Shown piece by piece: positions 1 through 23,500 of a DNA stretch of 64,000 nt (its first letter is position 1; each line of letters opens with the position of its first letter). A model generated the notes under the pieces. The model saw nothing but the letters and a program-made list of their open reading frames with translations, was not told the DNA's origin and did no database searches. The position numbers and the translations under genes were made by a program. This DNA is from a virus, in the IMG/VR virus record IMGVR_UViG_3300026097_001210, positions 1-64,000 of that record. The stretch is one strand, 5' to 3'.

Positions 1-41
1 CAAAAAGAATTTTAAGTACAAAAATTAACGATTTACTTTAA

Positions 42-50
42 TGCTATAAT
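42..50 (+). promoter_or_regulatory. Extended -10 promoter TGCTATAAT
   Basis: TGn-TATAAT upstream of SD AAGGAG and GTG 81; the same motif recurs before many genes in the window. Confidence 0.7.
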
Positions 51-80
51 ATTAAGGTACCAAACTTATAAGGAGACAAA

Positions 81-410
81 GTGCACACATATACAATTAG
101 CGAAGAAAACACCATCGAGGTTTTTGGTGAAGGAGAGACTATTCCATTCCTTCGTCAGCCACACTACCCTAACGGTGATGCTTTTGATACCCGTGAAGAA
201 GCAGAGACTTGGGCTCAGCTCTTTATTGAAGCTTTGGTAAACGATGAAGCACCCTATGCTCCAATTGGCAAGGGTATGGAAGGTGAACCAAAACCTACTA
301 AAGAAGAAATGCTAGCAATGCTTAAAGAGCGTGCTGAAGAGTTCGGGGACAATGTTCCAGAACAACTAGCACAGCGTATTGCTGACCTTGAATCTGAAAT
401 TTCTGCTTAA
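81..410 (+). CDS. Hypothetical acidic protein, possibly fibre-associated
   Basis: SD AAGGAG, GTG start, biased codon usage; no recognisable catalytic motif. Confidence 0.7.
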   Translation: MHTYTISEENTIEVFGEGETIPFLRQPHYPNGDAFDTREEAETWAQLFIEALVNDEAPYAPIGKGMEGEPKPTKEEMLAMLKERAEEFGDNVPEQLAQRIADLESEISA

Positions 411-418
411 CATTTGAT

Positions 419-463
419 CATCGTTTCTTCTTCTGATACAATGTATTAGGAGGAGAGACGATG
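419..463 (+). promoter_or_regulatory. RBS/start-codon-sequestering hairpin containing an extended -10 promoter (TGATACAAT 434-442)
   Basis: 419-439 pairs with 443-463 (21 contiguous WC/GU pairs), covering AGGAGG and ATG 461. Confidence 0.75.
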
Positions 464-1120
464 AATCATTTTGATGTTCTTATTGCTACCCCTGGGCATA
501 GCCTGGAAGCTCACTATGTGAGAAGCCTTGTAGATACTTTAGCTGAGTGTGATTCTCGGGGGGTATCATACAAGTGGCTTAACTCTTATTCTTCTTTAGT
601 TCATAATGCTAGAGAAACAACTATTAGCGGTGGAGATGGGTTTACTCTTAATCCCCTCGATAAAGGTCCATTAGGAGATAGCGTTACATATAACAAAATC
701 TTTTGGATTGATTCTGACATTTCCTGGACACCAGAAGACTTTTTTAAGCTATATGATTCTGAGCATGAAGTTACTACTGGTGCATATTTACTTGCAGACA
801 ATGTTACTACTTCTGTTCATGCTTGGGGTACACCTGGCGGTATTCCTAAAGAAGAAATCTTAAAGATGAAAGAAGTAACCAAAATTCAAAGTATGGGCTT
901 TGGATTTGTTGCTATGAAAAACGGGGTATTTGAAAGACTAGACCGTCCTTGGTTTGGACATTATACTCAAAAGATGCAAACAGGTCCAGATACCTTTATT
1001 GACACATATCTAGGTGAAGATATATCATGGTGTATTAATGCTTATAAGCATGGTGTGGAAATTTATTTTGACCCCTCGGTTTTGGTGGGGCATATGAAGA
1101 AGGTGAAAATAGAATGGTAG
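461..1120 (+). CDS. GT-A fold glycosyltransferase-like protein
   Basis: N-terminal VLIATP strand, DxD motif FWIDSDI, GFGF and GEDISWC motifs, C-terminal GH. Confidence 0.75.
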   Translation: MNHFDVLIATPGHSLEAHYVRSLVDTLAECDSRGVSYKWLNSYSSLVHNARETTISGGDGFTLNPLDKGPLGDSVTYNKIFWIDSDISWTPEDFFKLYDSEHEVTTGAYLLADNVTTSVHAWGTPGGIPKEEILKMKEVTKIQSMGFGFVAMKNGVFERLDRPWFGHYTQKMQTGPDTFIDTYLGEDISWCINAYKHGVEIYFDPSVLVGHMKKVKIEW

Positions 1121-1935
1121 ATAAACAATATTTTTTTATGGCAGGTTTGCCACGTTCAGGAAGCACATTGCTTGCTTCTCTCTTGAGTCAGAATCCAGAT
1201 ATGTATGTTTCTGCTCAATCTCCCCTGCCCAATATTCTGGGGGCAGCTTATAATCAATATCAAAGCAAAGAAAATCTAGACCACAGTAGATTTGATGATA
1301 TCTATAATGTAGTAGACAATATTATTCCTTTGTTCTATGAAAAGCACCCAGAAAAATACATCATTGATAAAAACTTTTCCTGGCTAGAGCCACACCCATA
1401 TGTGATTCTAGAGCACCATCTTAAGAACGATATTAAAGTTATTTGTCCAGTAAGAAATATTCTTGAAATTCTTGCATCATGGAATAGACTATGTGAAAAT
1501 GACAAGACTAATCAATATGACAATATTATTAGACAGCATGATAAGACTAATCGTAAGATGCCAGATCGTCGAGCAGACTTCTTTATGAATGTCCAAGACG
1601 AAGAGCAGAAGGGTATTCTTAATGGAATTGAAAACATGAAGCGTATTCTATACCCCCAATTCAAAGACCAGATTATGCTCGTTGAATATGATGACTTAAT
1701 TGATAATACCGCAGAAACAATTGACAGCATTTATAATTTCTTAGGTATTGAAAAGTATGAGCACGATTTTTCACATATTACTAATCCTCACGAATATAAC
1801 GATATTTGGGGGGTAAAGAATCATCACACAATTAAGTCAAAGATTAAAAAAGAAGAGTATGACTTTGAAAAACTATTCTCTTTTGACACTATTAAAAGGT
1901 ATTCTGGTCTAGAGTTTTGGAAGAATATTAAATGA
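1114..1935 (+). CDS. PAPS-dependent sulfotransferase
   Basis: 5'-PSB loop GLPRSGSTLL, DK motif, 3'-PB motif VRNILEILAS, VEYDDL...IYNFLG. Confidence 0.85.
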   Translation: MVDKQYFFMAGLPRSGSTLLASLLSQNPDMYVSAQSPLPNILGAAYNQYQSKENLDHSRFDDIYNVVDNIIPLFYEKHPEKYIIDKNFSWLEPHPYVILEHHLKNDIKVICPVRNILEILASWNRLCENDKTNQYDNIIRQHDKTNRKMPDRRADFFMNVQDEEQKGILNGIENMKRILYPQFKDQIMLVEYDDLIDNTAETIDSIYNFLGIEKYEHDFSHITNPHEYNDIWGVKNHHTIKSKIKKEEYDFEKLFSFDTIKRYSGLEFWKNIK

Positions 1936-2687
1936 TTATTGTGATTTCTGGTTTGCCAGGGGCAGGCAAAACAACACTAGCTAAAGAAATAGTGCGTAGA
2001 ACAGATGCTATTCATCTAAATGCCGATGACGTTAGGGCAGACCTAAGTTCTGACCTGGGGTTTTCTATTGATGATCGTAAAGAACAGTCAAGAAGGTTAG
2101 GCGCTATGGCAAGGCTGCTTTCTAATCAAGGTCATCTTGTGATTGTTGATTTTGTAAATCCTATCGAAGAAACTCGTAATGCTTTTGGTAGCTATGATTA
2201 TTTTGTTTGGGTTGACAGAATTAAAGAGGGTAGGTTTGAAAACACCAACAATATTTGGCAAGAGCCAACTAATGTTGATATAAGAATAGAAGAAGGCTTA
2301 ACTGTTGAAGAAGAAACAAAGCTTGTTTTAGATACCTTCGAAATTTATGACTGGACAGAACCAACAACTTTAATGCTTGGTAGATACCAGCCTTGGCACG
2401 AGGGGCACCAGGCTTTAAAAAACGAGGGGCACAAAAGAACAGAACAAGTTTTGATTGGAGTTAGAAACACTCATGGTACTTCTGAAAAAGATCCACTACC
2501 TTATGAAAAAGTGGTGGAATACATACAGCAATCTAATGGCACAAATAACTCACTAATAATGAAACTACCCAACATTACTAATATTATTTATGGTAGGGAC
2601 GTGGGGTATAAAATTGAACACGTTGAGCTACCCCCTGAAATTCAAGAAATATCAGCAACAAATAAACGTAAAGAGATGGGAATATGA
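1932..2687 (+). CDS. cysC: Adenylylsulfate (APS) kinase fused to a C-terminal HxGH nucleotidyltransferase domain (candidate PAPS synthase)
   Basis: P-loop GLPGAGKT, LNADDVR and LGFSIDDRKEQSRR (CysC signatures); C-domain GRYQPWHEGH, YGRD, ISATNKR. Confidence 0.8.
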   Translation: MIIVISGLPGAGKTTLAKEIVRRTDAIHLNADDVRADLSSDLGFSIDDRKEQSRRLGAMARLLSNQGHLVIVDFVNPIEETRNAFGSYDYFVWVDRIKEGRFENTNNIWQEPTNVDIRIEEGLTVEEETKLVLDTFEIYDWTEPTTLMLGRYQPWHEGHQALKNEGHKRTEQVLIGVRNTHGTSEKDPLPYEKVVEYIQQSNGTNNSLIMKLPNITNIIYGRDVGYKIEHVELPPEIQEISATNKRKEMGI

Positions 2688-2893
2688 AAGCAACAAAAGC
2701 TCGTTCAATGGCTAAAGCACTTCTTTACCGTGGACTAGGAACTTTAAGCACTTTTGTCATTGCTTTGATTTTTACGGGGGAAGCAGTAACAGCAACCTGG
2801 ATTGCTTTGATTGAATTTGTTGTCAAAACACTTCTATATTATTTTTATGAACGTTTTTGGAACATGATTTCTTGGGGTAGACAAGAAACCTAA
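2684..2893 (+). CDS. Small two-TM membrane protein, DUF2061-like
   Basis: RSMAKALLYR...KTLLYYFYERFW..ISWG pattern; ATGA overlap with the cysC fusion. Confidence 0.75.
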   Translation: MKATKARSMAKALLYRGLGTLSTFVIALIFTGEAVTATWIALIEFVVKTLLYYFYERFWNMISWGRQET

Positions 2894-2902
2894 TGCTATA
2901 AT
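2894..2902 (+). promoter_or_regulatory. Extended -10 promoter for a leaderless transcript
   Basis: TGCTATAAT, 6 nt, ATG 2909; no SD. Confidence 0.65.
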
Positions 2903-2908
2903 AGTTTT

Positions 2909-3874
2909 ATGTTTAATCCACTACTATTAAGGTTTAGAGCTATTGATCAAACCTTTAAGCCAATGGAGGCTACTGGTGGGAACATATCATATTATGCAGA
3001 TAATGGAATAGTTTATAAGGTTCATACTTTTACTTCTGGTACCTCGAATTTTGTCGTCAATGACCCTGGAAATGGCAACAGCAGAGGCTTGGTAAATTAC
3101 TTGGTTATTGCTGGTGGTGGTGGTTCTGCTGGATCTCAGGATGACGTTACCCTCGCTGGCGGTGGCGGTGGTGGCGGGTATAGAACAAACATGCCAAATG
3201 AAAGATCTGGAAGAGATAGCGACCCAGAGCCAGTGTTAAAACTAAATGCAGGATCTTATACTGTCACCGTTGGCGGCGGTGGTGGTGCTGGATCTAGCAG
3301 ATATCGCTTTCCTGGAGATGGTGGAAATGGTGGCAACTCTCAGTTTTATAATATTATTTCTAGTGGTGGGGGTGGAACTAGATACCAAAAGGGTGGAAAA
3401 AATGGTGGATGCGGAGGAGGAGACTCCAATCGTAGAAATGGTGGAGGCTCTGGCTCAATAAATCAAGGATTTGACGGCGGAACGGGTAGCACTTACGGCA
3501 CGGGACGCGGCGGTGCGGGCGGAGGTGGAGGTGCTGGCTCCGCTGGAGAAAGCGTTAGCTCTTTTAGCAGCTCTGGTGGAGACGGTGGCTATGGAATAGT
3601 TTCCTCAATTAACGGTTCTGCAATAGGCAGGGCAGGCGGCGGTGGCGGCTCTGCAAGAAGTTCTGCTGGTGTAGGCAGAAACGGAGGTGCATCTGGAAGG
3701 ACTGGCAGAAGCTCTGGGGCATCTGGTGCAAACGGATATGGGGGTGGTGCTGGCGGATCATCTTGGTACAGTACCGAAAGAGGAAGCACAGGCGGCGGCC
3801 GAGGAGGATCGGGAATCGTTATCGTAAGATATATATATGGATATGGCGATACGGTGGAAGAAGTTTTGGGGTAG
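2909..3874 (+). CDS. Glycine-rich virion fibre/adhesin-like protein
   Basis: YKVHTFTSG, YLVIAGGGG, many GGGGG runs, terminal GGSGIVIVRY. Confidence 0.7.
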   Translation: MFNPLLLRFRAIDQTFKPMEATGGNISYYADNGIVYKVHTFTSGTSNFVVNDPGNGNSRGLVNYLVIAGGGGSAGSQDDVTLAGGGGGGGYRTNMPNERSGRDSDPEPVLKLNAGSYTVTVGGGGGAGSSRYRFPGDGGNGGNSQFYNIISSGGGGTRYQKGGKNGGCGGGDSNRRNGGGSGSINQGFDGGTGSTYGTGRGGAGGGGGAGSAGESVSSFSSSGGDGGYGIVSSINGSAIGRAGGGGGSARSSAGVGRNGGASGRTGRSSGASGANGYGGGAGGSSWYSTERGSTGGGRGGSGIVIVRYIYGYGDTVEEVLG

Positions 3875-3878
3875 AATT

Positions 3879-4334
3879 GTGAAAGTTACTTTAGATATTG
3901 GTAATGGTTTTTGGAGTTTTGACAAACAAGAGCTAGCAAAAAGATATAGAGATAACGATGACTTAATTTTTGATTTTGTAAAAAATTCTAATGCCTACGT
4001 AGAGTTTAAAAGTTTAAGTTTTGGCTTCTTTTTGAAACTAAACAAAGAAGTTGTTTATCAGGAAAGTTTTCCTAAAGATAGTATTGTTTATTATTCAACA
4101 GATCAAGAATACTTAGAATCCGTAAAGGTTGAAGATATCAAGGCAGACAAAGAGTATGAGCTGAGTGTTTGGGCGGTAAACGATGGAATAGAGTATTCAG
4201 AAATTTTTGTATTTTCAATTCCTAAGCCAAAACAACCTGGTCAAGGATGGGTATGGAACGATGATGGAAATTATTGGGATCCCCCAATTGAATCTGCAGC
4301 CATCGGCGTAGAAATAGACAATCAAAACAACTAG
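3879..4334 (+). CDS. Hypothetical protein, probably fibre-associated
   Basis: GTG 3879 just after the upstream stop (ORF track start 3837 overlaps it); C-terminal PKQPGQGWVWNDDGNYWDPP. Confidence 0.6.
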   Translation: MKVTLDIGNGFWSFDKQELAKRYRDNDDLIFDFVKNSNAYVEFKSLSFGFFLKLNKEVVYQESFPKDSIVYYSTDQEYLESVKVEDIKADKEYELSVWAVNDGIEYSEIFVFSIPKPKQPGQGWVWNDDGNYWDPPIESAAIGVEIDNQNN

Positions 4335-4385
4335 AGCCTATCTACACAAAAACTCCCACTATGTTAAAATATATTAGGAGAATAA

Positions 4386-7300
4386 ATGTCTACAGCCCTT
4401 AATCTTTATGCCACAAAAGTTTTTGCGGAACACCCCGTTTCTTTGTGGGCATTGGATGATACATCCGACTATGTAGCCCTTATAAACGACACTAATCAGA
4501 ATCTTGATAATTGGAGTGTTACAGGGGCATCAGTTGTTGATGCTAGAACAGATTCAGAGTTTCAATCGGATAGGCCACCGCTAGAGCCATTTGAAAATAA
4601 ATATCTTAATGGTGTAACAGAAACTTTGGGTAGCGGTGGAATAGTAACTTTTGAAAGTCCAGGTTATTTTCAGCCATCAGATTTTGATCTGACCCTTGGA
4701 TCTTTTTCAATATCTACCTACTTTTTTACTTATGATAGAACAACTCAAGTTCGAGTGGGGTATTCATATTTTAACGGCTCACAAAGAGTAGAAGTCCCAG
4801 ATGTAACTAGAGCAACCACAATACCGGTTGAAAGACAGTGGGCATCTATTTCTCAAACTTTTGATTTCCCCTCAAACTTTAGTGATCTTAAGATATTTAT
4901 AGAAGTTTCCTTTACTGAGTCTGCATCACCATACAAGTTTTCTATTAATGGAATAAATGTTGGTCAGCTTGCAGAAGAGTTTTTTTTAGAGTCCCCTGGG
5001 GTTTTGCCAGCATCGCTGTCTTCAGAGATTAATTTGCAAGTTTCTGGAGTACCCGCTCAGCCATATGGATTAGAGGGGGCTAGTGGATACTATTTATCTG
5101 ACAACAAAAAAATGTATGCAAAAAATCTGGGGATGCCAATTGTTTATGGTGCATACAATAGCACAGTTCTGACACCATTTGCCAACAATCCCTCTTTAAT
5201 AGTTCCAGGTTTAGGATTTTTAAATGAGTCTGGGCAGTATCAAAAATTCACTTTTGAGTTTTGGGCAAAAATTCATAATGAATCTTTTGTGCTTAGAAAA
5301 ATATTTGGACCTGTTTTTTCAGAAGATGGTTTGTATACGGAAGGTCCATTTCTTATTTTAAAAATAGGAAAAGAGGTTGGCTCTCACTACATTGGTGAAT
5401 GGAATAGGCCAATGCTTTTCAATATTCGATATTCCCCCGACTCCTGCAGTCTTGTCTTAAACGGCGAAGAAGTTATTTCTTTTTCCATTAATCCTAACGA
5501 TACAACCTTTCCAAATAAAGAAGATGGCTCTGGAAACGATCAAGACTGGTTAGGTTTCTACGCCTATGAAGACATCCCCATTATTTCTCTAGACTGTACT
5601 GGTCTATATCCTTATGAGGTTCCAGCTATTGTTTCAAAAAGAAGATTTGTGTATGGCCAGGCTGTAGAAGTGCCAAGCAATTTGCAGGGGTTTAAGAAAA
5701 ATAATTCTTTATCTATAGACAATGCTTTTGCAAAACATGCCAAAACTTATTCCTACCCCCTGCTTGGAAATTGGTCTAATGCTATCGTTGAAAACCTGGT
5801 ACCAAATCCTTCCGACATATCATCTCCAAGCTATTCCCTTCCAGAAATTGCTTTTGACAATAAAACCGTAGAGGAGTGGTATCAGGCTTCTTCAAACAGC
5901 CAAGTGGGGGGATACTCTTTCTTCTCTATGGAGCCAGATGCAGAGTGGACAGAAACTAATGGCCATATGTATTTTAATTCCCTCGAAAATATATTAGAAG
6001 AAACAAAGGCCATCTATGGTGTTTTTAGTCTTAAAAGACTTTATCAAGAAAAGCAAATCTTAATAGAAATGGTTAACAAGGTTAGCGGGGATTCTTTAGA
6101 AATATCTGTAACAGATAATACAGTTAACTACATATTAAAAACAAAACAACCAAACGGTTCTTTTGTAGAGGAAAATATTTTTACGGTAACTGGTCTAGTT
6201 GCTGACGCAATATTTTTAGCGGGTATTCATATTCCAAGAGCAAAGAATTCTTTTGGGTATAAGCTATCTAGGTTTTTTACTAACATTAGCAACATCAGCG
6301 TATTTTTATGCGGTAATTCAGAATTACAGAATACCTTCCGTGGAAGAGTTCACTCTGTAGGCTTTCCGAGTAAAAGGAATCTAAAAAAAATAGAGGATGA
6401 CTTTCTCATTATTGGCATGCCCTCAAACTTTTCAGAAAACTACACCGAGATTCTTATTTATGACGGTGGAGAGTATGACACTATTGAGTGGGAGTATAGC
6501 TATGAAAGTGGAACATATGCCCAAGAGGCTAACGAAGTTTCCTTGATAGGTAACGAGTCTGGCTCTAGTGCTGCTCTTCTAGTGGCGACTCAGGTATATG
6601 ATCATATATCAACATACACTCTGATTCCAAAAGATTATTTTGGCGCATTTACTCTGGATATTGGTGCCGAGTCTTACTGGGAGGATTATTTGCCTCTAAG
6701 TTACTTTGCAAAATATGTTACAGATGGTGCGGGGAATCAGTATAAAGATCTTGACTTTATTCAATTTAATATTGACTACCCTTTCTTTAATAAATATCTC
6801 AATAACTTTTATGACTCAACTGACTCCCCAGTAAAAATGTATGCAAGCTTTGAGTATTTAGTAAATGGCGTCGCCACACAGCTTTCTGCTTACACAAACA
6901 CAAAGCTTTTACCAAAGTCTGGAATTGTTAGACCTGGAACAGAGTGGAAAACAACTAAGTATGAGATAACAGATGATACAGTCATCTACCCACCTGCTGA
7001 AGAAAACTTTGAAAGTCTTGCTCTAAAGATAAGTCTTGAGATTTCCACTATTGGTGTAATTGAAAAACCAATTTCAATTAAGTCCTTAGATTTTGCATCA
7101 AAATCTTTGGGGTATTCTCCAAATAGAATTGGTAACAGGTTTGGAACAGAGGTATATCCTTATAGAAAAGTAGGTCCTTATTTTGATTATAAGAATGTTC
7201 CACCATTTAGTATTTATAAAAACAGTGTTCCATACTTATATCTTTCAGGAAGTTCGGGTATAAGAATGAGAGATGATTATGCAACATCAGATGAAAGAGG

Positions 7301-7982
7301 CTTTACAATGCCAATTAACAGGGGGAGGGGTAGCTTCTTTAAGGTTGGCTCAATGCAAATTTTAGCTAAGTATGAAAGAGATACGCTTCCCACCACCCCA
7401 GTAAAAATATTTGAAATCGACGGGGCAGACAGAAGTATTAACTTTTATCTAGTTGCATTCAAGGGAAACAGTAAAAGAGGGTTTGTCTATGCACTAGATG
7501 GCACAACGGGAAGGGCCATAAGCGGACTGATTTATAGTATGGACGGTAGAAATGTTAAAAGACCAATTATAAGCCCCAATGTTTGGACAGCAATAGGCGT
7601 TAGTTTTGAAGAAGCTATAGACTTTTCTTCTTCTGTTGGTGCTTTAAGAATAACAAACCCAATCTTTGTAGACAATATCTCTTATTATCAAATTACTGAA
7701 CAAGAAGAATCTTCTCGTCTTGCATATAGAAAATGGTATGCTGTACGAGCAGAGCCAGACAATGACTTAGACTGGGATTATTGGGACGAATCAACTTGGC
7801 AAGAGGTTTTATTCCTTACAGAAGCTAGGCCAACAGTTATAGATCCCACAAAAATTTACAAGCAGTACACAGGAACAGACAGGTTTGTCAATCAGTCAAG
7901 CACATCAATTAGGCTAGGCGAATATAAATACTCTACATTCAAAAATGTAAGATGGTCTAGAATAACCTCAAATTCTGCCTAG
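4386..7982 (+). CDS. Large beta-rich virion structural protein with a LamG/ConA-like segment
   Basis: 1198 aa; HPVSLWALDD start, FTFEFW and LVLNGEEV LamG-type motifs; promoter TGTTAAAAT and SD upstream. Confidence 0.6.
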   Translation: MSTALNLYATKVFAEHPVSLWALDDTSDYVALINDTNQNLDNWSVTGASVVDARTDSEFQSDRPPLEPFENKYLNGVTETLGSGGIVTFESPGYFQPSDFDLTLGSFSISTYFFTYDRTTQVRVGYSYFNGSQRVEVPDVTRATTIPVERQWASISQTFDFPSNFSDLKIFIEVSFTESASPYKFSINGINVGQLAEEFFLESPGVLPASLSSEINLQVSGVPAQPYGLEGASGYYLSDNKKMYAKNLGMPIVYGAYNSTVLTPFANNPSLIVPGLGFLNESGQYQKFTFEFWAKIHNESFVLRKIFGPVFSEDGLYTEGPFLILKIGKEVGSHYIGEWNRPMLFNIRYSPDSCSLVLNGEEVISFSINPNDTTFPNKEDGSGNDQDWLGFYAYEDIPIISLDCTGLYPYEVPAIVSKRRFVYGQAVEVPSNLQGFKKNNSLSIDNAFAKHAKTYSYPLLGNWSNAIVENLVPNPSDISSPSYSLPEIAFDNKTVEEWYQASSNSQVGGYSFFSMEPDAEWTETNGHMYFNSLENILEETKAIYGVFSLKRLYQEKQILIEMVNKVSGDSLEISVTDNTVNYILKTKQPNGSFVEENIFTVTGLVADAIFLAGIHIPRAKNSFGYKLSRFFTNISNISVFLCGNSELQNTFRGRVHSVGFPSKRNLKKIEDDFLIIGMPSNFSENYTEILIYDGGEYDTIEWEYSYESGTYAQEANEVSLIGNESGSSAALLVATQVYDHISTYTLIPKDYFGAFTLDIGAESYWEDYLPLSYFAKYVTDGAGNQYKDLDFIQFNIDYPFFNKYLNNFYDSTDSPVKMYASFEYLVNGVATQLSAYTNTKLLPKSGIVRPGTEWKTTKYEITDDTVIYPPAEENFESLALKISLEISTIGVIEKPISIKSLDFASKSLGYSPNRIGNRFGTEVYPYRKVGPYFDYKNVPPFSIYKNSVPYLYLSGSSGIRMRDDYATSDERGFTMPINRGRGSFFKVGSMQILAKYERDTLPTTPVKIFEIDGADRSINFYLVAFKGNSKRGFVYALDGTTGRAISGLIYSMDGRNVKRPIISPNVWTAIGVSFEEAIDFSSSVGALRITNPIFVDNISYYQITEQEESSRLAYRKWYAVRAEPDNDLDWDYWDESTWQEVLFLTEARPTVIDPTKIYKQYTGTDRFVNQSSTSIRLGEYKYSTFKNVRWSRITSNSA

Positions 7983-8010
7983 AGAGTTATAATATGGTAT
8001 ACTGGTTACC

Positions 8011-8379
8011 ATGAATAGCCCAACTTCGGACAAAATCGGCAAGTCTAAAGCCACAATCATTGATAAGGGTTATGACTGGGGCATTTATGTGTGGAAAAAG
8101 TCAAATGGGAAGTGGTTTACTGATGGAAACGGAAATATTTTAAACATCCCTTCCATGAAGGGCGACCTTTCTAAAATTTCAGAACTTAAAAGTGCCGCCG
8201 CATATCACGGAGAGCCAGACGGAGAGCCAGTCTTTTTTGCTGGACTAAGCAGAGTCAGTGATGAAGAGTATGAGGAGCAGGTGGGAAGAATGCAACAGGG
8301 TCTTATTCCTAACCTCAATGACCTTGGTGCGGTGCATGCGGCACAACAAACTTTAAAACAGTATGGTGATGAAGGATAA
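8011..8379 (+). CDS. Hypothetical protein upstream of portal
   Basis: TGGTATACT-N7-ATG; stop overlaps the portal start. Confidence 0.7.
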   Translation: MNSPTSDKIGKSKATIIDKGYDWGIYVWKKSNGKWFTDGNGNILNIPSMKGDLSKISELKSAAAYHGEPDGEPVFFAGLSRVSDEEYEEQVGRMQQGLIPNLNDLGAVHAAQQTLKQYGDEG

Positions 8380-9983
8380 TGGAACAAGAGTGGACAGTCG
8401 GCGCTAGAATCGACGAATTAGAAAAACAAGAAAATAGCTTTAAGAATCAGGATCCATTCAACAAAAGCTGGGAAGACTTAAAGGCATACAATGGTTTGGC
8501 TACAAACTTTAAAAGAAGATCTACAAGAATTGCAAAAACCTTGGATATGCCACCAAGCGAGCAATACCTATCCAATGCTCGTGCCAGTCAGGTAGGAACA
8601 GACGGGGCAGGCTCTAAAGAAATTAATCCTGGCGACGTTTTTCGTAATGGCTACGGAATGTTTGATGTTATCACACCCCCATGGAACCTATACGAGCTTG
8701 CAAACTACTATGATACATCATTCGCTAATCACGCAGCTATTGATGCAAAGGTAGAGAATATCGTTGGACTTGGCTATGATTTCGCGGTATCAGAAAGAAC
8801 TATGCTTAGACTTGAAACTAATCAGGATGAGCTAGCCACTAAGCGTGCTCGCAACAGAATTGAAAGAGCAAGAATTGAGCTAAGGGACTGGATTGAAAAT
8901 CTTAATCAAGATGATTCTTTCACGAACACACTAATGAAGTTTTATACTGACGTTCAGTCAACTGGTAATGGATATTTAGAAATTGGTAGAACTACAAAGG
9001 GAGAGATTGGCTACATTGGACACATTCCCTCTACCACAATGCGAGTGCGAAGATTGCGCGATGGGTATGTTCAAATTATTGGACAGAAAGTTGTTTACTT
9101 CCGTAATTTCGGGGCAAATAATCAAAACCCCATGACCACCGACCCACGTCCAAATGAAATTATTCACTACAAAGAGTATTCTCCATTAAACACTTTTTAT
9201 GGTATTCCAGACATCATGTCTGCCATTTCATCACTTCATGGAGATCAGCTTGCCTCTCAGTACAACATTGACTACTTTGGAAATAAGGCTGTTCCAAGAT
9301 ATGTGGTTACCTTAAAGGGAGCAAAACTTTCTCCAGATGCTGAAGACAAGATGTTTAGATTTTTGCAAACAAGCCTAAAGGGTCAGTCCCATAGAACACT
9401 ATACATTCCACTACCTGGAGATACTGACAATAACAAAGTAGAGTTTAACATGGAGCCAATTGAAAATGGTGTTCAAGAGGCATCCTTTAATGAATACAGG
9501 GTCCGCAATAGAGATGATATTTTGGTTGCTCATCAGGTCCCTCTTTCAAAAATTGGTGGAGCAGATGCATCATCAATTGCATCAGCACTTGCACAAGACA
9601 GAACATTTAAAGAGCAGGTAGCTAGACCAGCACAAAAGAATTTAGAAAAAATTATAAACAAAGTCGTTAAAGAAAAAACAGACATTCTAGAGTTTAAGTT
9701 TAACGAACTAACATTGACAGACGAAATCGCTCAGTCACAAATTATTGAGCGCTATGTGAAGACACAGGTCATGACTCCAAACGAAGCAAGGCAAGAGCTT
9801 GGCCTCCCCCAAAGGCCAGATGGCGACGATCCATTCCTAATGTCCCCCAGACAAATGACTGATGCTAGAGCAAATTTGGCAGGGAATAGGGAAAGAGATT
9901 CTCAAAGATCAAATGAACAATCTGACAATACAGAAACACTACAAGGAAGAAACGCTCAGGGCGAAGGCCCAGCATCAGAGTAG
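8379..9983 (+). CDS. Portal protein (HK97-type)
   Basis: TGNGYLE, EIIHYK..SPLNTFYGIP, YFGNKAVP, HQVP, MTPNEARQELGL; position before protease and capsid. Confidence 0.92.
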   Translation: MEQEWTVGARIDELEKQENSFKNQDPFNKSWEDLKAYNGLATNFKRRSTRIAKTLDMPPSEQYLSNARASQVGTDGAGSKEINPGDVFRNGYGMFDVITPPWNLYELANYYDTSFANHAAIDAKVENIVGLGYDFAVSERTMLRLETNQDELATKRARNRIERARIELRDWIENLNQDDSFTNTLMKFYTDVQSTGNGYLEIGRTTKGEIGYIGHIPSTTMRVRRLRDGYVQIIGQKVVYFRNFGANNQNPMTTDPRPNEIIHYKEYSPLNTFYGIPDIMSAISSLHGDQLASQYNIDYFGNKAVPRYVVTLKGAKLSPDAEDKMFRFLQTSLKGQSHRTLYIPLPGDTDNNKVEFNMEPIENGVQEASFNEYRVRNRDDILVAHQVPLSKIGGADASSIASALAQDRTFKEQVARPAQKNLEKIINKVVKEKTDILEFKFNELTLTDEIAQSQIIERYVKTQVMTPNEARQELGLPQRPDGDDPFLMSPRQMTDARANLAGNRERDSQRSNEQSDNTETLQGRNAQGEGPASE

Positions 9984-10044
9984 AATGTTACAAAATATTA
10001 ATATATTTGAACTTTCTTAAAAAACAATGTATAATGGAGCTAGT

Positions 10045-11409
10045 ATGACTATGTTTAAAGCCCATTGGGATACAGATGGCGACGCCGTTCGCCTATCAAT
10101 GCCCTTTGCAAAAGTAGATAAAGAAAGACGCACAGTGTCTGGTTTTGCCACACTGGACAATGTTGATAAACAAAACGACATTGTTACCACCGATGCGTCT
10201 TTACAGGCTTTCTCCAAATTTCGCGGAAACATTCGAGAGATGCACCAGCCTTCGGCTGTTGGACGCATGGTGTCATTCAAAGAGGATAAGTATTTCGATC
10301 CTGACACCAAAAAATTCTATAGCGGCGTCTATGTTTCCGCGTACATTTCCAAGGGTGCACAAGACACCTGGGAAAAGGTAATGGACGGTACATATACAGG
10401 TTTTTCCATTGGCGGTAAAATGCTTAAATGGGACGATGCTTTCGATGAGAAAATGGATAAGCAAATTCGTATTATTAAAGAATATGACCTTGTAGAGCTT
10501 TCACTTGTTGACTCTCCTGCAAATCAGTTTGCTAGCATTCTATCTATCGAAAAGTCTAATAACGGTGAATTCGTAAAGGGAGAAGGCGTTGTAGATTTAG
10601 AAAATGTGTTTTGGGATTCGGATTCTGGGCTTGTCATACTGTCAGAAAACGAATCTGAAAACCACCCTGTTTCGGGGGAAGCTATGAAAAACATTGGATT
10701 TGTAGAAAAAGCCGATACAGAAAAAAATGACATGATAAAGTTCTTAGTTGATAGTGCTAAAGGCATTAATCTTTCTAAGATGACAGAGGAGGTAAGTCCT
10801 ATGACTGAAGCAACAGAAAATCTCACAGAAAAAACTGATGAGGTTGTTGAAGAAGTAGAGGTCGCTCCAGAGGCAGATGCCGAGACTGAAGAGGCAGCTG
10901 TTGAGGAAGAGGCCGAAAAGGCCGATTCTGCAGAAGAGACAGCTGAAGAATCAGAAGCAGACGTTGAAAAAGCTGATGCTACTGAAGCCGATGTCGAAGA
11001 GGCTGAGGCTACTGAAGCCGAAGTTGAAAAGGCCGAGGCTGTCGAGGCAGATGAAGAGGTAGCCAAGTCCGACGACGTAGCAGCCGTAGAGGCAGTTGCC
11101 GAAATTAAGGATACCCTCACATCAGCCTTTAGCGATCTTGCAGAAACCGTAAAAGCTCTTCACGAGCAGGTTAATGCATTAAACAAATCTATTACTGGTG
11201 TATCCGAAGAAGTTTCAGCTACAAAGCAAGAGCTTGCTGAAGCCAAGGGCCAGTTTGATGAGTTTGGTAAGCGTGTTGATGCTGTAGAGCAAGACACCGC
11301 TTTCCGTAAATCTGGCGATCTTGGCGAGATCGTGCAGGAACAACCAGAAATGGTTGAGAAATCCCTATGGGGCGGTCGTTTCCTCAAAACTGCCGACTTA
11401 TTTAAATAA
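10045..11409 (+). CDS. Prohead maturation protease fused to an acidic coiled-coil scaffold
   Basis: VSGFAT..DKQND, REMH, GFSIGG, LVELSLVDSPAN; E/A-rich C-terminal half; start 10045 or 10051 preferred over 10027. Confidence 0.88.
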   Translation: MTMFKAHWDTDGDAVRLSMPFAKVDKERRTVSGFATLDNVDKQNDIVTTDASLQAFSKFRGNIREMHQPSAVGRMVSFKEDKYFDPDTKKFYSGVYVSAYISKGAQDTWEKVMDGTYTGFSIGGKMLKWDDAFDEKMDKQIRIIKEYDLVELSLVDSPANQFASILSIEKSNNGEFVKGEGVVDLENVFWDSDSGLVILSENESENHPVSGEAMKNIGFVEKADTEKNDMIKFLVDSAKGINLSKMTEEVSPMTEATENLTEKTDEVVEEVEVAPEADAETEEAAVEEEAEKADSAEETAEESEADVEKADATEADVEEAEATEAEVEKAEAVEADEEVAKSDDVAAVEAVAEIKDTLTSAFSDLAETVKALHEQVNALNKSITGVSEEVSATKQELAEAKGQFDEFGKRVDAVEQDTAFRKSGDLGEIVQEQPEMVEKSLWGGRFLKTADLFK

Positions 11410-11435
11410 GCAAAAAATCACTTAGGAGGTGACAA

Positions 11436-12566
11436 ATGTCGGAAGAGATCAAGAAGAATCAGCCAGGTGAATCTGGTGAACTAGGAGGTACTGCTCCTGG
11501 TAACTTCCAGGGCCAGGGTGCATTCGCATCTGGTGGCGTTGGAGGCGTGACAGACCCTGGTGCTGACACACTTGGTAACATTCCTACCGCCGAGTTCGGT
11601 GTTACTACTGGTCCAAACGCAGTAAACCCTTCGGGTGATGCAGCTAGTGGTATTCTCCGTCCCGAGCAAGCACGTCGTTTTATTGACTACGTGTGGGATG
11701 GCACCGTTCTCGCCAAGGATGGTCGCCGTGTAACAATGCGCGCCAACACAATGGAACTCGAAAAAGTCAATGTTGGTGAGCGTGTTATTCGTGCAGCTTC
11801 ACAAGGTATTGGTGACTACACCAACACTGGTGCTACATTCAGCAAGGTAGAACTTACTACAAAGAAGATCCGCCTTGACTGGGAGGTCAGCGCTGAGGCA
11901 CTCGAAGACAACATCGAAGGTGCAGCTCTAGAAGACCACCTAGTAAGACTCATGACAAATGCTTTTGCAAATGACATCGAGGACCTTGCTATTAATGGTG
12001 ATGGTACTACAGGTAACTTCCTTTCCATTATGGACGGATTCGTTAACCGCGTAAAGACCAACGGAGATGCTCACGAGTATGTTGCTGAGGTGACCGACAA
12101 TGCCTGGACTACAGAGGTTATGCAGGGAATTCTCCTTGCCATGCCACGTAAGTACCGCGCACTTAAGAACAACCTTAAGTTCTACGCTGGTACTGACGCA
12201 TTCCAGGGAATTGTCAAGAACAACGGTACACTTGCTGACGCTATTGCTGAAGCATTTGCTGGCACACCAGCTGGTACAGAGCAGAACCGTCAGGCCTACC
12301 TCGATGGTCAGGCTCAGACACTCGGTACTGCTCGCACCACTCGTGTTCTCGGTATCGACGTTCAGGAAGTTCCATACTACCCAGAGGGCTATGTAGACAT
12401 TACATTCCCCGCTAACCGTGTATGGGGTTTCCAGCGCGACATCACTGTAAACCGTGAGTATGTTGCCAAAAAGGACACAATTGAATACACAGTATTCGTC
12501 CGCTTTGGTATTCAGTGGGAAGAGGAAGACGCCGTCGCATACGCAGACGCCGCTGCTGATTCCTAA
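11436..12566 (+). CDS. Major capsid protein (HK97 fold)
   Basis: GILRPEQARRFID, LEDNIEG, DIEDLAINGDG; strong SD and strongly biased codons; terminator follows. Confidence 0.92.
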   Translation: MSEEIKKNQPGESGELGGTAPGNFQGQGAFASGGVGGVTDPGADTLGNIPTAEFGVTTGPNAVNPSGDAASGILRPEQARRFIDYVWDGTVLAKDGRRVTMRANTMELEKVNVGERVIRAASQGIGDYTNTGATFSKVELTTKKIRLDWEVSAEALEDNIEGAALEDHLVRLMTNAFANDIEDLAINGDGTTGNFLSIMDGFVNRVKTNGDAHEYVAEVTDNAWTTEVMQGILLAMPRKYRALKNNLKFYAGTDAFQGIVKNNGTLADAIAEAFAGTPAGTEQNRQAYLDGQAQTLGTARTTRVLGIDVQEVPYYPEGYVDITFPANRVWGFQRDITVNREYVAKKDTIEYTVFVRFGIQWEEEDAVAYADAAADS

Positions 12567-17526: not shown

Positions 17527-20500
17527 ATGGCTGAAGCACAAGCCAATATAAATCTGAATCTAAATACCTCTGGAGCCCTCGCACAATTGCGAGCGCTCCA
17601 GAGGCAGATTTCTTTGTTTCAGCAACAAATGGCTCGTGGGAATGCCAACACTGTTGCCCAAGCTCAGGGCATGCAGAGAAACCTTCTTAATAGCATAAAC
17701 TCTACTGGCCAGTTCGCAGCCAGTATGACGACGGTATCCACAGCTACCGAATCTTTTACTAGTGCACTTCAAAAAAACAAACTCTCTATGGGGGAGTACT
17801 TTAGGTTTGCTGGCGGGGCATCTAAAAACTTTGGTCGTTTCTTTAGAAATGAAATGAATCTTGTTGGCAAAGTTGCCAGGGAAAGAGTAAAAGACCTTCA
17901 AACCCAATACATTAAAATGGGTCGAGACACTAACGGAGCCATGAGGGCTATGGCCGTTAGGCCACTAACCCTTGATATGGAAAATCTTGCCACTAGGACG
18001 GCAATGGCTGCTCAAAAACAGCAAATATTCAATCAGCTTATTCGTCAAGGATCAACCAATCTTCTAAACTGGGGTAAGAATACTCAGTGGGCTGGTAGAC
18101 AGCTTATGGTTGGTTTTACTATTCCGCTTGGAATAATGGGTGCAACAGCCATTTCTGAGTTTAGAAAACTTGAAGAGCAAGCGGTTAAATTTAGACGTGT
18201 TTATGGAGACATGTTTACCACCAGCGCTGAAACAGAAAAAGCTCTAGACAACATTAGAGAACTCGCTGATGAATTCACAAAGTATGGTATTGCTGTTGAG
18301 AAGACAATTGATTTAGCCGCAAAAGTCGCCCAGATGGGTAACATGGGCGACGCCCTCGAACAACAGGTAACTCAAGCAACAAGACTTGCTGTTTTGGGTG
18401 GGCTAGAGCAGCAAGAAGCACTAGACACCACAATTTCTCTTACTAATGCTTTTGGTGTTGCAACAGAAGATTTGGCTAGCAAGATTGCCTTTTTGAATGC
18501 CGCAGAAAACCAAACAATTCTTGCCATTGAAGACTTTAACGAAGCGATTCCAAAAGCTGGTTCTGTTGTTCAACAGCTTGGTGGGGACGTAGAAGACCTT
18601 GCATTCTTCCTTACTGCCATGCGAGAGGGTGGAATTAACGCCAGCCAAGGTGCAAACGCTCTAAAGTCATCTCTTGGTAGATTAGTAAACCCAACCGAGG
18701 TTGCCAGAAAGAAAATGGCAGAGCTGGGAATTGACATCGTCGGCATTGTTGAAAATAATGTCGGTGATTTGCGCGGTACCATTATGGAGCTTGGTTATGA
18801 GCTAGATGCCTTGGCCCCACTTGACAGATCTAGAGCTATTGAACAAATGTTTGGAAAGTTCCAGTTTGCTCGAATGTCTACAATGTTCCAAAATATTGTA
18901 AAAGATGGAAGTCAGGCACAAAAAGTTCTAGAGCTTACTACTAACAGCTCCGAAGAGCTTGCTATTTTGGCAGAGCGCGAGCTTGCCAGGGTAGAAGAAT
19001 CTCCAGCATTCAAACTACAAAAAAGCTTTGAGCAACTTAAAGCATCTCTTGCCCCACTAGGTGAGCAGTTTGTTAAAATTGTTACCCCAATTATAGAGTT
19101 TGGTACAAACATACTTGAAAAGTTTAACGCTATGGGCGAAGGTGGAAAACGTTTTGCCACTATTGCGATTGCCTCACTTGGTCTTGTTGCCCCAGCAGCA
19201 TTGATGATTATTGGTCTTATTGCCAACGGTGTGGCAAACTTGGCAAAATTCTTTACCATGCTAATGAGCGTTGGAAAGCAGGGGTCAACATCAATGACTC
19301 AGCTTGGCGCACAGACACAGTATATGACTCAAGAACAAATTGAAGCAAGCGCTGTAGCGGCTTCTCTTAATAATTCTCACGAAAGATTGCGACAAACATT
19401 TACATCTGAAGCAGCTGCTGTTAGAAATTTGACAACCGCATACCAACAAGGAATTGGGGCACAAAGAGCTTTTGCATTTGGTCCTGGACGCGGCCCAGCA
19501 AGAGGTAGGACTGCTTCTGGATTTGCAGAGGGGGTTGTTTCCGTACCTGGTCCAAAAGGCGCGGGGGACATAATTCCAGCAATGCTCTCCCCAGGGGAAG
19601 CAGTTATTCCAGCAAAGATGGCTGAAAAATATGCGCCATTTATTAGTCAAATGATTGAAGGTACGGTTCCTGGATTTATAAAAGGAACCTTTTTAACAAA
19701 TAAACAGGTTGCAGATGAAAAGTTTTATAGCGCTCCAAGGTCTGTCTCTCAACAGGCGTCGGAAATGCCAGCCTGGTCAACTGAGGCCGCGGAGGATGAA
19801 TTTCTTGAAAGACTAGCGGCAGAAGAAGGGTTGTCAGAACAACAAACCAAACAGTTAAAGAGAAGACAAACTTCTCACATTGAAAAAGACACATCTCCAG
19901 TTGAAATTGGTGGCCAGAAGGTTGAAATGAAAAACTGGAAAGCAGACAACCTTATGCTTGACAAGGGGGCAGTTAACAATTTTCAAAACAGCCTAGAGCA
20001 AAGCGGTGGAGTACTAAAAGACCTGTCTGATTCAGACATTGGCAATATCGCAAAAGAAGCAGGGACGAGCTTTAAAGACACCAAAAAAACTTTAGAAAAG
20101 TTTGACAAGGGAATTGCTCCAGCAACCAAAAAAGAAGCAAAAATAATGCAAAAGGTTGCCGAAAGAAAAGCAGCCGAAGCTGACGCAGCCTATAAGGCCG
20201 AAGAAGCTAAAAAAAGACCAAACCAAAGAAACTTAAGCAGACTGAGAAATCAAAGATATCAGGCTAGGGCAGCCGCGGGAGTGCTGCAAGAAAGGCTTAA
20301 GGCACCAACCGGTAAGGGTTTTTATGATACAAAAGATCAAAGGTCTTATGACCCTAAAAAAGATGCCAAGGCTGATCAGGAACAAAAAAGAAAAGTAGAC
20401 AGCTTAAATCGCAAAAACGAAAAGCTAAAAGAAGAAAACAGCAAAGCCATAAAAAAGAATACGCGGTCAAAGAAAAATTCAACTCGGGCAACTGATAAGA

Positions 20501-23500
20501 ATACCGCGGCCACTCAAAAAGAAGAGGCGGCAACGAAAAGGTCTGTTGCCGCAAAGAAGGGGTGGGAAACTAGGCGAGCAAGAGCTGCCGCAACATCAGC
20601 CGCATCTGCCCCAAGAGATTTAAGTGGCGTTACTAGATTAACTTCTAGACAACCAGTTTTGGCTTATGCTGGCGGTATGCCAGAAACAAGCCCAGCACCA
20701 GCAGCACCAGGAAGATTTAAAAGATTTATGTCTGTTGGTAAGGGTAGCGGCGGTATGGGTATTGCCATGGGTGCATCTGCTTTGGCAATGGGCGGTTCTA
20801 TGCTTCCAGGTCAAATAGGTCAAACTGTTCAAAAGCTAATGCCAGCAATTATGGGAATTTCAATGCTTGCCCCAATGATCGGTATGCTTGGAGCGCCACT
20901 AACTGCTTTAATTGCTGTTGTTGGTGGGCTAACCGCTGCTTATTTCTTGCACAAGAAAGCTATTGAGGATACCGCCAAAGAAACGTATGAATTGCAAAGA
21001 GCGCTGGGTACCAGTAGAACAGCAGTTCAGTCTTTGGCAGAAGAGGCGGGGAGGGTAACAGACAGAGAGCTTGTTGAAAGGCAACAACAGGACAGATTTG
21101 ACCCATTCCAAATTGCAGCGGGTAAAACCACTTTCGGTGAAAACTTTGCAGAGGGAGAAGCTGGTCAAGAGCTAGTAAGTAACATTAGAACATCACTAAC
21201 TGATTTGGGAAGAGACCAAACAGTTATAAGTGTTTTCCAGCAACTTGGTCAGGCCGTAGGAGAGGGTGCTCTTTCTATCCCAGAAGCCAGAAGTATCGCC
21301 ACAGAGCTTGGAGATCAAATTGACGATATGTCATTTGGTATGGAGGTTAATGCAAACTTAATGAGGCTGCTTGGCCCAGGGGGAGAAGACCTAACCGCTG
21401 GGGACAGACTAACAATCCTTGCAGACCTTAGAGAGGATCGAGAAAGAACCAGAGAAGAGATGGATCTGGACTATGAAGCAACCTCTTATGGGGATATCTT
21501 CGATGCTGAATCCGAAGCCAATGAAAGGCTAGGAGAAATAATTGAACAAAGTGGTAGCATGCTTGGCGCAATGGCTACTTCTGGAGAAGCCTGGAAGATT
21601 TGGTGGGGTGCCATTACTGGCACTACCGCAGCTCAAGATAATATAAAGCAGATGTCTACTATTTTAGCTCAAGGTGTCAATGACGCCGATGCATACGCTT
21701 CAGAAATGGCTGCAATAGAAGTAGCTTATGGCGAGGACCTAGAAAAAGCCTATGCTATGGGAGATCAGTACGAAATATCAAGACTTGAAAGAGAAAAGAG
21801 CGATGCGCAAAGGGAGCTGGTTGCTCAAAGGAAACAAGATCAAGATCAAATTTTATCAGAGCTTGGCGAAGATACTTCAAAAGCCAGAATAGCCATGAAG
21901 CAAGCCCTAGAAGTTGATTTTGCTGGTGACGAAGCCGCCCTAGCTCAATATCAAGGGGCCTTAAAACAAATACAAGAGCTGGGCCTGTCTGATCAAAAAT
22001 CCTTACAGTTAGAATATATGCTTACTTCTGGTGACATGGAGTTTTCAACTGCAATGGCAATTGTAGAAAATTATGAAAAATTACCAAAAGTTTCCAACAA
22101 AATATTAGAAATTCAAACCAAGCTTGGCGGAGATTTTGGCAAAAACGCATCAGACTTATTCAATATATTCAATGATCTAGATGAAGCATTAGCAGAAGAA
22201 TTTGTTTTGAGTCTAGACACCAGAGATCTAGATGAGTATCAAAGACAAATTGAAGGATTTGGTGCAATTTCTAGGATTACTAACCTTTTTCCAGAAGGGG
22301 AAGAAATTCTTTTAGATTTGGCACTTAAAGACCCAAGTGTTTTAGATGGAATTGTAGAAAGAACTAGCAGAATAGAGGCTTTAGATAATGAACAGATTAC
22401 CCTAGACTTTATTGCTAATACATTTGGAGACGAAGCACTCGCTGCAGCAGAAACTATTTGGTCAGATATACCAAAGGAAGATAGAAAAGACGCTCTTTAC
22501 AGTATTTTAACAGCCTTAGACCTTCAGATGGGAGAAGGATTCGACGATCTTTTCTCATCACTAGAAGGGCAAACAATTGCTGGGGTGACAATTAGTGAAC
22601 CTGGAGACATTCTTTCCCTTATTGGAGCAAGAACCTCTGGCATAGCACAAGGAAACAGAGAAGCTGGCGATGGTGAAGATGAAATAGAGGCAGCAGGCGG
22701 CAGCGCCAAAAAGCTAACCTCTATTATGGATGACCTAGTTAAAAAACTAAGAGACGTTAGACTTAGCACAATCTTAATGACAAACGGATGGGTTGAATCT
22801 GCGAATAAGCTAGAAGAGCTTTTTGGAGGCGGCAGGGGTATTTCTGTATTCAGAGGTCTAGAACAGGAAATGCGTAGCCTTGGTGCAGGCGAAGACCTAA
22901 TTGACCTAATTGTTGGAATGGATCCTGAAGAGTTTGAAAAGAAAAAAGATCAGCTATTTACTTTTGATGCTGCTGGAAATATTACTGGAGCAACAAACAT
23001 TCTTGCCAACATGGGCAAAGCGCTAGATGCAATTGCTCTTGGAGACTTCCAAAGTGAACAGGAAAAGGTTGTTAGAACTATAAGTGATCAAATTATCGCA
23101 ACAAGAAAACTTACAGCTGCTGGATTTAGCCAAGTTGAAGCCTATGAGGCAGTCCAGGATGCAGCTTTTGCTGCGGCGGTAGCTCAAGAAAAAAACAAAG
23201 ATGTAATAAGACAGCTCGTAAATGTAACAAAAGAAGCAAAAGAAATGACTGAGGCTTTTGCCGCTGCTCAGGCGGTAGCTTCATCAAATCAAGAATTTGT
23301 TGACAGAGGTAATGCCATAGACTTTATTGCTAAAAATATTGAAAACCTTACTGAAGCACAAAAACAATTAATTATGAGCGATAGCAATGTTCAAGCATTA
23401 ATTGGAACTACCGTCGATGCAAAGGCGCTTAGGCAGGCATTGGCTAATGCTGAAAAAGAAGCACAGCTTGAGCTTAGAATTAAAAAGCTAACATTTGAGG

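Follow-up and report, generated by a model that had tools for sequence, protein, structure and literature searches.

The 64,000-nucleotide stretch analysed here (the window) comprises positions 1 to 64,000 of the IMG/VR virus record IMGVR_UViG_3300026097_001210. The parent record is 77 kb long and ~68% complete according to CheckV, and it carries genes for portal, protease, capsid, DnaB, a DnaE-like polymerase, ribonucleotide reductase and TerL. Near the beginning of the window lies an open reading frame (ORF) with an ATG start whose 251-residue product, P0001, joins a compact adenosine 5'-phosphosulfate (APS) kinase domain to a small nucleotidyltransferase (NT) domain of the HxGH superfamily, and it is this fusion, with its candidate role in the synthesis of 3'-phosphoadenosine 5'-phosphosulfate (PAPS), that is the subject of this work. 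The fusion gene is the third in a run of four overlapping genes, which starts with a glycosyltransferase-like gene, continues with a sulfotransferase gene and ends, after the fusion gene, with a gene for a small DUF2061 membrane protein (Table 1). The start of the fusion gene overlaps the stop of the sulfotransferase gene in an ATGA (1932-1935), a second ATGA (2684-2687) contains both the stop of the fusion gene and the start codon of the DUF2061 gene, and both neighbours are translationally coupled to the fusion gene. The upstream sulfotransferase is the presumed consumer of PAPS.

A compact kinase fused to a minimal nucleotidyltransferase domain

It is clear that the fusion gene is real and conserved, because it matches PHROG 10255 in full length, has hundreds of full-length homologues, and gives a confident AlphaFold2 model of the whole protein (pLDDT 94.8, pTM 0.87). 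The two-domain anatomy that had originally been predicted from the sequence was borne out, with an APS kinase at residues ~1-137, an HxGH domain of ~105 residues, and all three motifs that had been pointed out (GRYQPWHEGH at residues 150-159, TNIIYGRDVG at 216-225 and EISATNKR at 239-246). The pathway context, i.e. a supply of PAPS for the neighbouring sulfotransferase, likewise holds in our analysis.

The kinase half matches the Pfam family APS_kinase (PF01583) with residues 2-84 (E = 2.2e-18, 67.2 bits at a cut-off of 21.1), in an alignment that spans only positions 4-91 of the 152 profile positions and hence not the full length of the family. Its PDB sequence matches are all APS kinases, with CysC of Mycobacterium tuberculosis at the top (3.3e-13), and the top 30 Foldseek matches are exclusively APS kinases or APS kinase domains (e.g. 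4rfv, E = 7.5e-10, TMt 0.79). The motifs of the domain are the P-loop GLPGAGKTT, LNAD instead of LDGD, DLGFSIDDRKEQ, and DFVNP, and the segment from strand 4 to F101 comprises only ~6 residues. In M. tuberculosis CysC, Asp480 is the proposed catalytic base, Arg483 and Arg497 hold the phosphosulfate, and Phe492 and Phe576 sandwich the adenine of APS (PMC4373884). In a HMMER alignment with this enzyme, D32 of P0001 aligns to Asp480, R35 and R49 align to the two arginines, and F44 and F101 to the two phenylalanines, and all five residues are nearly invariant across 60 aligned homologues. As judged from its sequence, the kinase half is related to APS kinases and has kept their APS site intact, but it departs from a textbook CysC.

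The compact kinase domain is also found alone, as a 143-residue protein of Ralstonia phage RsoM2USA, where a 183-residue ORF two genes downstream opens with a sulfotransferase-like SATQRSASTIF stretch (Table 1).

The NT domain belongs to the NMNAT clade

The match of the second domain to the Pfam family CTP_transf_like is weak (residues 148-211, E = 0.0047). Its motifs are GRYQPWHEGH, VRNT..KDP, PNIT, YGRDVGY and ISATNKR, and in a 60-sequence alignment G150, R151, Q153, H156, H159, G221, R222, G225 and R246 are invariant. When residues 138-251 were searched against 1.84 billion representative proteins, 862 clusters were found at E<=1e-3. When a profile of stand-alone NT members (alignment A2) was compared with the PDB, the archaeal nicotinamide mononucleotide (NMN) adenylyltransferase (NMNAT) MJ0541 came first (1f9a, 1.3e-12), followed by NadM, MTH150 and NadR, and there was no Sat-type ATP sulfurylase among the 66 matches at E<=10. 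With hhalign, the relationship to NadM/NadR-type enzymes has a probability of 99.4% across the N-terminal two thirds of the domain.

The structural comparison that had been suggested as a check points in the same direction. The model of the NT domain is confident (pLDDT 94.0), and its best matches in VIA-align are NMNAT, NadM and phosphopantetheine adenylyltransferase (PPAT) with Z-scores of 9.8-10.0 (10.0 to 1f9a). The catalytic domain of Thermus thermophilus ATP sulfurylase aligned as well, with a lower Z-score of 8.5 over 110 of 114 residues at 20% identity, and the cytidylyltransferase (CyTase) domain of Fom1, TagD and HldC gave Z-scores of 6.7-8.2. As the NT domain can be aligned with an ATP sulfurylase catalytic domain, sulfurylase chemistry is native to the fold. 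Residues 221-223 form a near-invariant G-R-D, and the superposition with T. thermophilus Sat is one at the level of the whole domain.

Two origins had been considered in the original prediction, namely a stripped-down Sat and an independently recruited enzyme. The former was rejected, since nothing in the 77-kb phage record matches PF01747 (Sat) at E<=1, Sat is missing from the PDB profile matches, and the hhalign comparison with Sat, which covers the HxxH turn only, reaches a probability of just 4%. The QxRNPxHxxH motif of Sat is absent, and GRYQPWHEGH stands in its place. An independent recruitment fits what is now seen as a truncated relative of NadM and the archaeal NMNATs, and the early reservation that GRYQPWH is nearer to NMNATs than to the QxRNP motif of Sat agrees with this homology.

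In comparison to archaeal NMNATs, the NT domain lacks ~25 residues after strand 4 and ~30 residues at the C-terminus. Residues ~76-108 and 136-168 of MJ0541 remain unmatched, the similarity thus does not extend over a full-length NMNAT, and the scores against the NCBIfam NMNAT models are far below the respective cut-offs (22.8 versus 397, 21.3 versus 127 and 18.5 versus 181 bits). The missing internal segment follows a DI..N..W stretch, which we take to contact NMN in the archaeal enzymes. A nearly invariant, family-specific YGRDVGY loop replaces the missing residues. The NT domain is therefore best described, on sequence comparison, as a side branch of the NMNAT clade, of unusually small size, in the HxGH superfamily.

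Genomic linkage of the NT domain

Genomic contexts were drawn from IMG/VR, GTDB genomes and metagenome contigs, and the genome contig search used alignment A3 with the single pattern GR[YF]QPWHxG, which under-samples the family. Of 79 non-redundant viral loci that carry the NT domain, 71 have it fused to the compact kinase, and in 77 an APS kinase is fused or adjacent to it. Split, overlapping kinase and NT gene pairs occur in phages and in metagenome-assembled genomes (MAGs) of Verrucomicrobiales and Rhodospirillales, and SAR11 also has the two as adjacent split genes. Fusions exist also in the reverse order, with the NT domain joined to a canonical full-length CysC that has every classical motif (P0135, P0263, P0264; the CysC part of P0135 matches profile positions 2-151 of 152 with 5.7e-63), and this NT-CysC form is abundant on Tara Oceans contigs.

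A sulfotransferase is encoded in 34 of the 79 viral loci and a glycosyltransferase in 13, and in related loci a glycosyltransferase-like gene accompanies the module. The NT-CysC genes of Tara contigs adjoin TPR-sulfotransferases (TPR-Sulfotransfer_3, 1.3e-46; 6 of 37 metagenome loci), and sulfotransferases flank the kinase-NT copy in the variable region of SAR11 genomes. DUF2061 is fused to the NT gene or located within <=800 bp of it in 30 of the 79 viral loci and in 23 of 27 close relatives. Two IMG/VR contigs encode a direct DUF2061-NT fusion of 193 residues, and no kinase gene was detected in the two fetched loci. In an alphaproteobacterial genome (G068), one ORF combines the C-terminal part of CysN, a canonical CysC and DUF2061 (Table 1). 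DUF2061 is not a general gene of sulfur operons, as its neighbours in 14 alphaproteobacterial loci are mostly unrelated. CysD was not found in the 77-kb phage record, and neither Sat nor CysD was found in the window or in the fetched viral NT loci.

In Xylella phage Sano (L001:2199-2876), a kinase-NT homologue lies among early genes, ~3 kb from an annotated cysteine dioxygenase gene. No sulfotransferase was detected there, and the fusion may serve a different purpose in phages of this kind.

The gene pair of SAR11 and its metabolic context

The NT domain is not restricted to phages. It is encoded in 122 of 151 Pelagibacterales (SAR11) genomes with a completeness of at least 80% (121 of 150 when the unpublished genome G237 is left out), where the gene for an NT protein of 125-136 residues usually follows immediately after one for a compact kinase of 135-137 residues and is occasionally fused to it. 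The neighbours of this core pair are genes of osmolyte and one-carbon catabolism (DAO-GCV_T, Rieske oxygenase, M24 peptidase, enoyl-CoA hydratase, CoA-binding proteins). Some SAR11 genomes have a second, fused kinase-NT copy in a variable region.

Sat was found in two and CysD in three of 61 Pelagibacterales genomes that were sampled, and the three with CysD all belong to the ten genomes of this sample that lack the NT domain (Fisher p = 0.0033, without correction for phylogeny). For cultured SAR11, cysC, cysQ and aprA have been listed, and cysDN, cysH/I/J and sat have not (Smith et al. 2016, PMC5069961); in our own analysis, AprA was found in 2 of 5 SAR11 single-cell genomes. The orphan “cysC” of SAR11 probably corresponds to this compact kinase, and the adjacent NT gene appears to have gone unrecognised and unannotated so far. 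Canonical CoaE, CoaD and NadD are present in five of five SAR11 genomes with the pair, and the enzyme for CoA or NAD biosynthesis is therefore not to be sought in the pair. This disposes of the need for a CoA synthase role, which the CoA-related flanking genes had brought up by the logic of a PPAT combined with a dephospho-CoA kinase, as well as of a replacement of NadD.

The variable-region copy always adjoins a pyruvate-kinase-like gene for a barrel-only protein of ~325 residues (PF00224, down to 2.8e-58) that lacks the C-terminal domain; ATP regeneration for PAPS synthesis is one possible role of this protein.

A proposed minimal PAPS synthase

An ATP sulfurylase activity of the NT domain is suggested by its linkage to APS kinases in both orders, by the sulfotransferase neighbours in three separate settings (viral loci, the SAR11 variable region and the NT-CysC loci), by the links to DUF2061, and by the SAR11 genomes that have the pair and neither Sat nor CysD. 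Genomic linkage is thus the main evidence for function, and it favours sulfate adenylylation. We consider it reasonably probable that the fusion is a minimal PAPS synthase, with an NT half that acts as an ATP sulfurylase of an unrecognised kind. In such an enzyme, the NT domain would transfer AMP from ATP onto sulfate to form APS and pyrophosphate, with the HxGH and ISxTxxR elements binding ATP. The invariant R222 of the YGRDVGY loop would probably help to hold the anion, and R151 and R222 could neutralise anionic charges. The compact kinase would then phosphorylate the 3'-OH of APS to yield PAPS and, as happens in PAPSS and Sat-CysC enzymes, draw the unfavourable adenylylation forward. The PAPS would be used by the translationally coupled sulfotransferase, and with the participation of the glycosyltransferase-like gene a glycan or another surface target would be sulfated during infection. 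The DUF2061 membrane protein probably tethers the enzyme at the membrane.

A further-reaching reading, to which we give about an even chance, is that the NT domain represents a third, independently evolved class of ATP sulfurylases that derives from NMNATs and is distinct from Sat and CysD, being widespread in aquatic phages and near-core in SAR11. SAR11, so far regarded as incapable of sulfate activation, would then make APS and PAPS for sulfation, and the phage would possess a complete, membrane-associated PAPS factory, consisting of the kinase-NT fusion and DUF2061, which would be independent of host sulfur metabolism. Within the same reading, the enzyme could in reverse supply the missing “Sat” step after sulfite oxidation by AprBA.

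Several observations weigh against the assignment as ATP sulfurylase. The closest relatives of the NT domain are NMNATs, its sequence similarity to Sat does not go beyond the HxxH turn, and the PNIxN..Y stretch might correspond to the presumably NMN-contacting DI..N..W of the archaeal NMNATs, which would leave room for NMN binding. In the kinase half, Asn30 replaces the first Asp of LDGD, which in M. tuberculosis CysC (Asp478) holds a Mg-bound water (PMC4373884). The lid, which in that enzyme comprises ~30 residues (552-581, with Lys562 and Arg559), is cut to a few residues, and the score against the NCBIfam APS-kinase model TIGR00455 (64.6 bits) lies below the equivalog cut-off of 138.7. As SAR11 AprBA can form APS from sulfite and AMP (PMC5069961), an orphan APS kinase does not strictly need a sulfurylase in these bacteria. 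The anti-correlation of CysD and the NT domain in Pelagibacterales comes from a test that ignores phylogeny. Homologues with 35-38% identity in Xylella, Xanthomonas and Stenotrophomonas phages are located among early genes, in the Xylella and Stenotrophomonas phages also among DNA-metabolism genes, and no sulfotransferase is detectable near them. Moreover, CysD is also encoded by three of the four MAGs outside SAR11 that carry the pair (one of the four, G307, being unpublished), and there is therefore no general displacement pattern. Dedicated PAPS synthases can, on the other hand, coexist with CysDN, as exemplified by NodPQ.

What alternatives exist for the proposed function? The kinase half alone could act in sulfur metabolism and convert APS of the host, as made by CysDN, Sat or AprBA, to PAPS. 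The NT domain would then bind nucleotides or mediate dimerisation in a non-catalytic or regulatory capacity, for which the allosteric APS-kinase-like domain of fungal ATP sulfurylase offers a parallel. The kinase domain indeed stands alone in Ralstonia jumbo phages, many hosts make APS, including SAR11 with its AprBA as a potential source, and the co-occurrence of CysD in most of the non-SAR11 MAGs would be in line with such a division of labour. We nevertheless regard this as unlikely, because H156, H159, R151, S241, T243, R246 and the G221-R222 loop vary little or not at all even between very divergent members, which is typical of an active enzyme, and because the NT domain occurs also as a separate gene and, in loci in which no kinase was found, fused to DUF2061.

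If the NT domain had instead kept the activity of its relatives, it would be a true minimal NMN or nicotinic acid mononucleotide adenylyltransferase, the kinase would phosphorylate the adenosine ribose of the dinucleotide, and the fusion would be a phage enzyme for NAD(P) supply or NAD reconstitution. The nearest relatives in sequence and structure as well as the GRxQPxHxGH signature, which is that of the NadM/NadR/archaeal NMNAT clade, speak for this possibility, and genes for NAD salvage are known from phages. We judge it to be quite improbable, since the internal and C-terminal NMNAT segments are gone, the NCBIfam scores are far too low, and NadD is already present in the SAR11 genomes with the pair. 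In addition, the kinase resembles APS kinases in particular and keeps both arginines that bind phosphosulfate, the NT domain is fused to canonical CysC as well, and the links to sulfotransferases and to DUF2061/CysNC recur. Lastly, the acceptor might not be sulfate. A sugar or alcohol phosphate could be phosphorylated and then nucleotidylated to become a glycosyltransferase donor, similar to what is known from HldE and TagD, or another oxyanion such as selenate or phosphonate could be used. HxGH transferases include sugar-phosphate and glycerol-phosphate nucleotidyltransferases, the fold is matched by Fom1 CyTase, TagD and HldC, glycosyltransferase-like genes occur in the same operon, and a SAR11 variable-region copy is located near a PEP-mutase/cytidylyltransferase gene. 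The pair of adenine-stacking phenylalanines and the pair of phosphosulfate arginines are, however, kept, unlike in a sugar-kinase site, the reverse-order fusions involve bona fide CysC, and glycosyltransferases are far less frequent in the viral loci than sulfotransferases, which makes a non-sulfate acceptor very improbable in our view.

Comparison with known sulfate-activating systems

The bifunctional PAPS synthases PAPSS1 and PAPSS2 of animals and the Sat-CysC fusions of bacteria or fungi (e.g. 2gks from Aquifex aeolicus) resemble P0001 in that an APS kinase and an adenylyltransferase-type domain of the HxxH superfamily are joined in one chain. With PAPSS, P0001 shares the kinase-then-transferase order, and its kinase aligns structurally with the kinase domains of PAPSS1 and PAPSS2. 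PAPSS and Sat-CysC enzymes have ~550-630 residues, as compared to the 251 of P0001, which in contrast to them does not match PF01747 and lacks both a PUA-like N-terminal domain and the QxRNP motif, and whose kinase is devoid of the ~30-residue lid and the N-terminal extension. P0001 may thus have a PAPS-synthase-like function outside the PAPSS family, with a second domain that is NMNAT-like and not Sat-like.

With archaeal, NadM and NadR NMNATs (MJ0541 1f9a, MTH150 1ej2, NadM 2qjt/2qjo), the NT domain shares the GRxQPxHxGH motif, the ..NP.. loop after strand 2 and the ISxTxxR helix (VIA-align Z 9.2-10.0). It differs from them by the YGRDVGY loop, which is present where the ~25 and 30 residues are absent, and by its consistent linkage to APS kinases rather than to Nudix or ribosylnicotinamide-kinase domains. 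CysC (PF01583, e.g. 4bzq from M. tuberculosis) and the kinase half have the P-loop, the catalytic Asp, the two arginines, the two phenylalanines and the fold in common; the partial profile coverage, the truncated lid, LNAD for LDGD and the score below the equivalog cut-offs set the latter apart. The proposed role, a dedicated PAPS supply for sulfation, is that of CysDN/NodPQ including CysN-CysC, one of which is fused to DUF2061. CysD is a PP-loop ATPase that is coupled to the GTPase CysN, and neither of these domains exists in P0001.

Annotation and significance

In databases, members of the family are named “kinase”, “adenylylsulfate kinase”, “cytidyltransferase” or “hypothetical”, and the ESM Atlas contains only “putative cytidyltransferase” clusters. 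No description of the NT domain was found in the literature on DUF2061, on phage PAPS and sulfotransferase genes, on PAPS in SAR11, and on novel sulfurylases. To our knowledge, Sat and CysDN are the two forms of ATP sulfurylase described to date. If the proposed activity is true, a third, minimal and NMNAT-derived sulfurylase would change the annotation of sulfate activation in genomes and viromes. It would also address the oddity that SAR11 has cysC, cysQ and aprBA without sat or cysDN (PMC5069961), and the most abundant marine bacteria would gain a route to PAPS and sulfated surface molecules. For the phage, it would mean a self-contained sulfation cassette of sulfotransferase, PAPS synthase and DUF2061 beside tail-fibre genes, with a target that could be the virion or the host envelope. 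An active enzyme of 251 residues would moreover be an attractive compact catalyst for PAPS regeneration.

Features and neighbouring genes

Table 1. Coordinates of the fusion gene, its domains and neighbours in the window, and of homologous or related features in other loci (locus handle before the colon)
Feature	Position	Strand	Evidence
Kinase-nucleotidyltransferase fusion gene (P0001)	1932..2687	+	ORF/translation; PHROG 10255 full length, 8e-58; AF2 model
Compact APS-kinase domain, residues 1-137	1932..2342	+	Pfam PF01583, PDB matches, Foldseek
Minimal HxGH nucleotidyltransferase (NT) domain, residues ~145-251	2364..2684	+	PDB profile, hhalign, VIA-align, invariant residues
Sulfotransferase gene	1114..1935	+	Pfam Sulfotransfer_3 1.8e-13, Sulfotransfer_1 3.6e-13; PHROG 27463
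DUF2061 small two-helix membrane protein gene	2684..2893	+	Pfam PF09834 1.4e-18
Glycosyltransferase-like gene	461..1120	+	PHROG 1574 2e-48; weak match to glycosyltransferase PHROG 34859, 5e-7
SAR11 split kinase and NT pair	L199:5582-6363, L201:5983-6782, L204:5582-6363, L205:5289-6070
SAR11 variable-region fused copies	L046:6568-7542, L052:8382-9371, L056:6566-7549, L058:5530-6495, L059:6622-7596
DUF2061-NT fusions	L117:7767-8342, L118:1781-2356
CysN C-terminus, canonical CysC and DUF2061 in one ORF	L181:13-1704
Lone compact kinase, Ralstonia phage RsoM2USA	L003:4980-5411
ORF with sulfotransferase-like start, Ralstonia phage RsoM2USA	L003:5872-6423

Directly 3' of the cassette, the window encodes a Gly_rich_2 protein (2909-3874; 1.2e-16), and after this gene a fibre-like protein of 1198 residues (4386-7982). 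Either of these proteins might be a target of the modification or its functional partner. Fibre and portal genes are syntenic with the cassette in the related contigs L004 and L008. A megablast search of window positions 1-12000 against phages gave zero matches. The DnaE-like DNA polymerase III alpha subunit (38212-41484) is 56% identical to that of Streptomyces phages of ~127 kb (BillNye group), so that the host of this aquatic phage might be an actinobacterium, although this is only a guess.

Three further domain combinations were encountered. P0130, a protein of 395 residues, has a DUF4118 membrane domain that is followed by the kinase and then by the NT domain. In the metagenome proteins P0187 and P0230, the NT domain is apparently joined to fragments of chorismate synthase or 3-dehydroquinate synthase, both enzymes of the shikimate pathway, and these fusions are probably artefacts of gene calling or assembly. 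In the window itself, the structural region contains two giant ORFs, one for 2900 residues (17527-26229) and one for 1543 residues (26786-31417).

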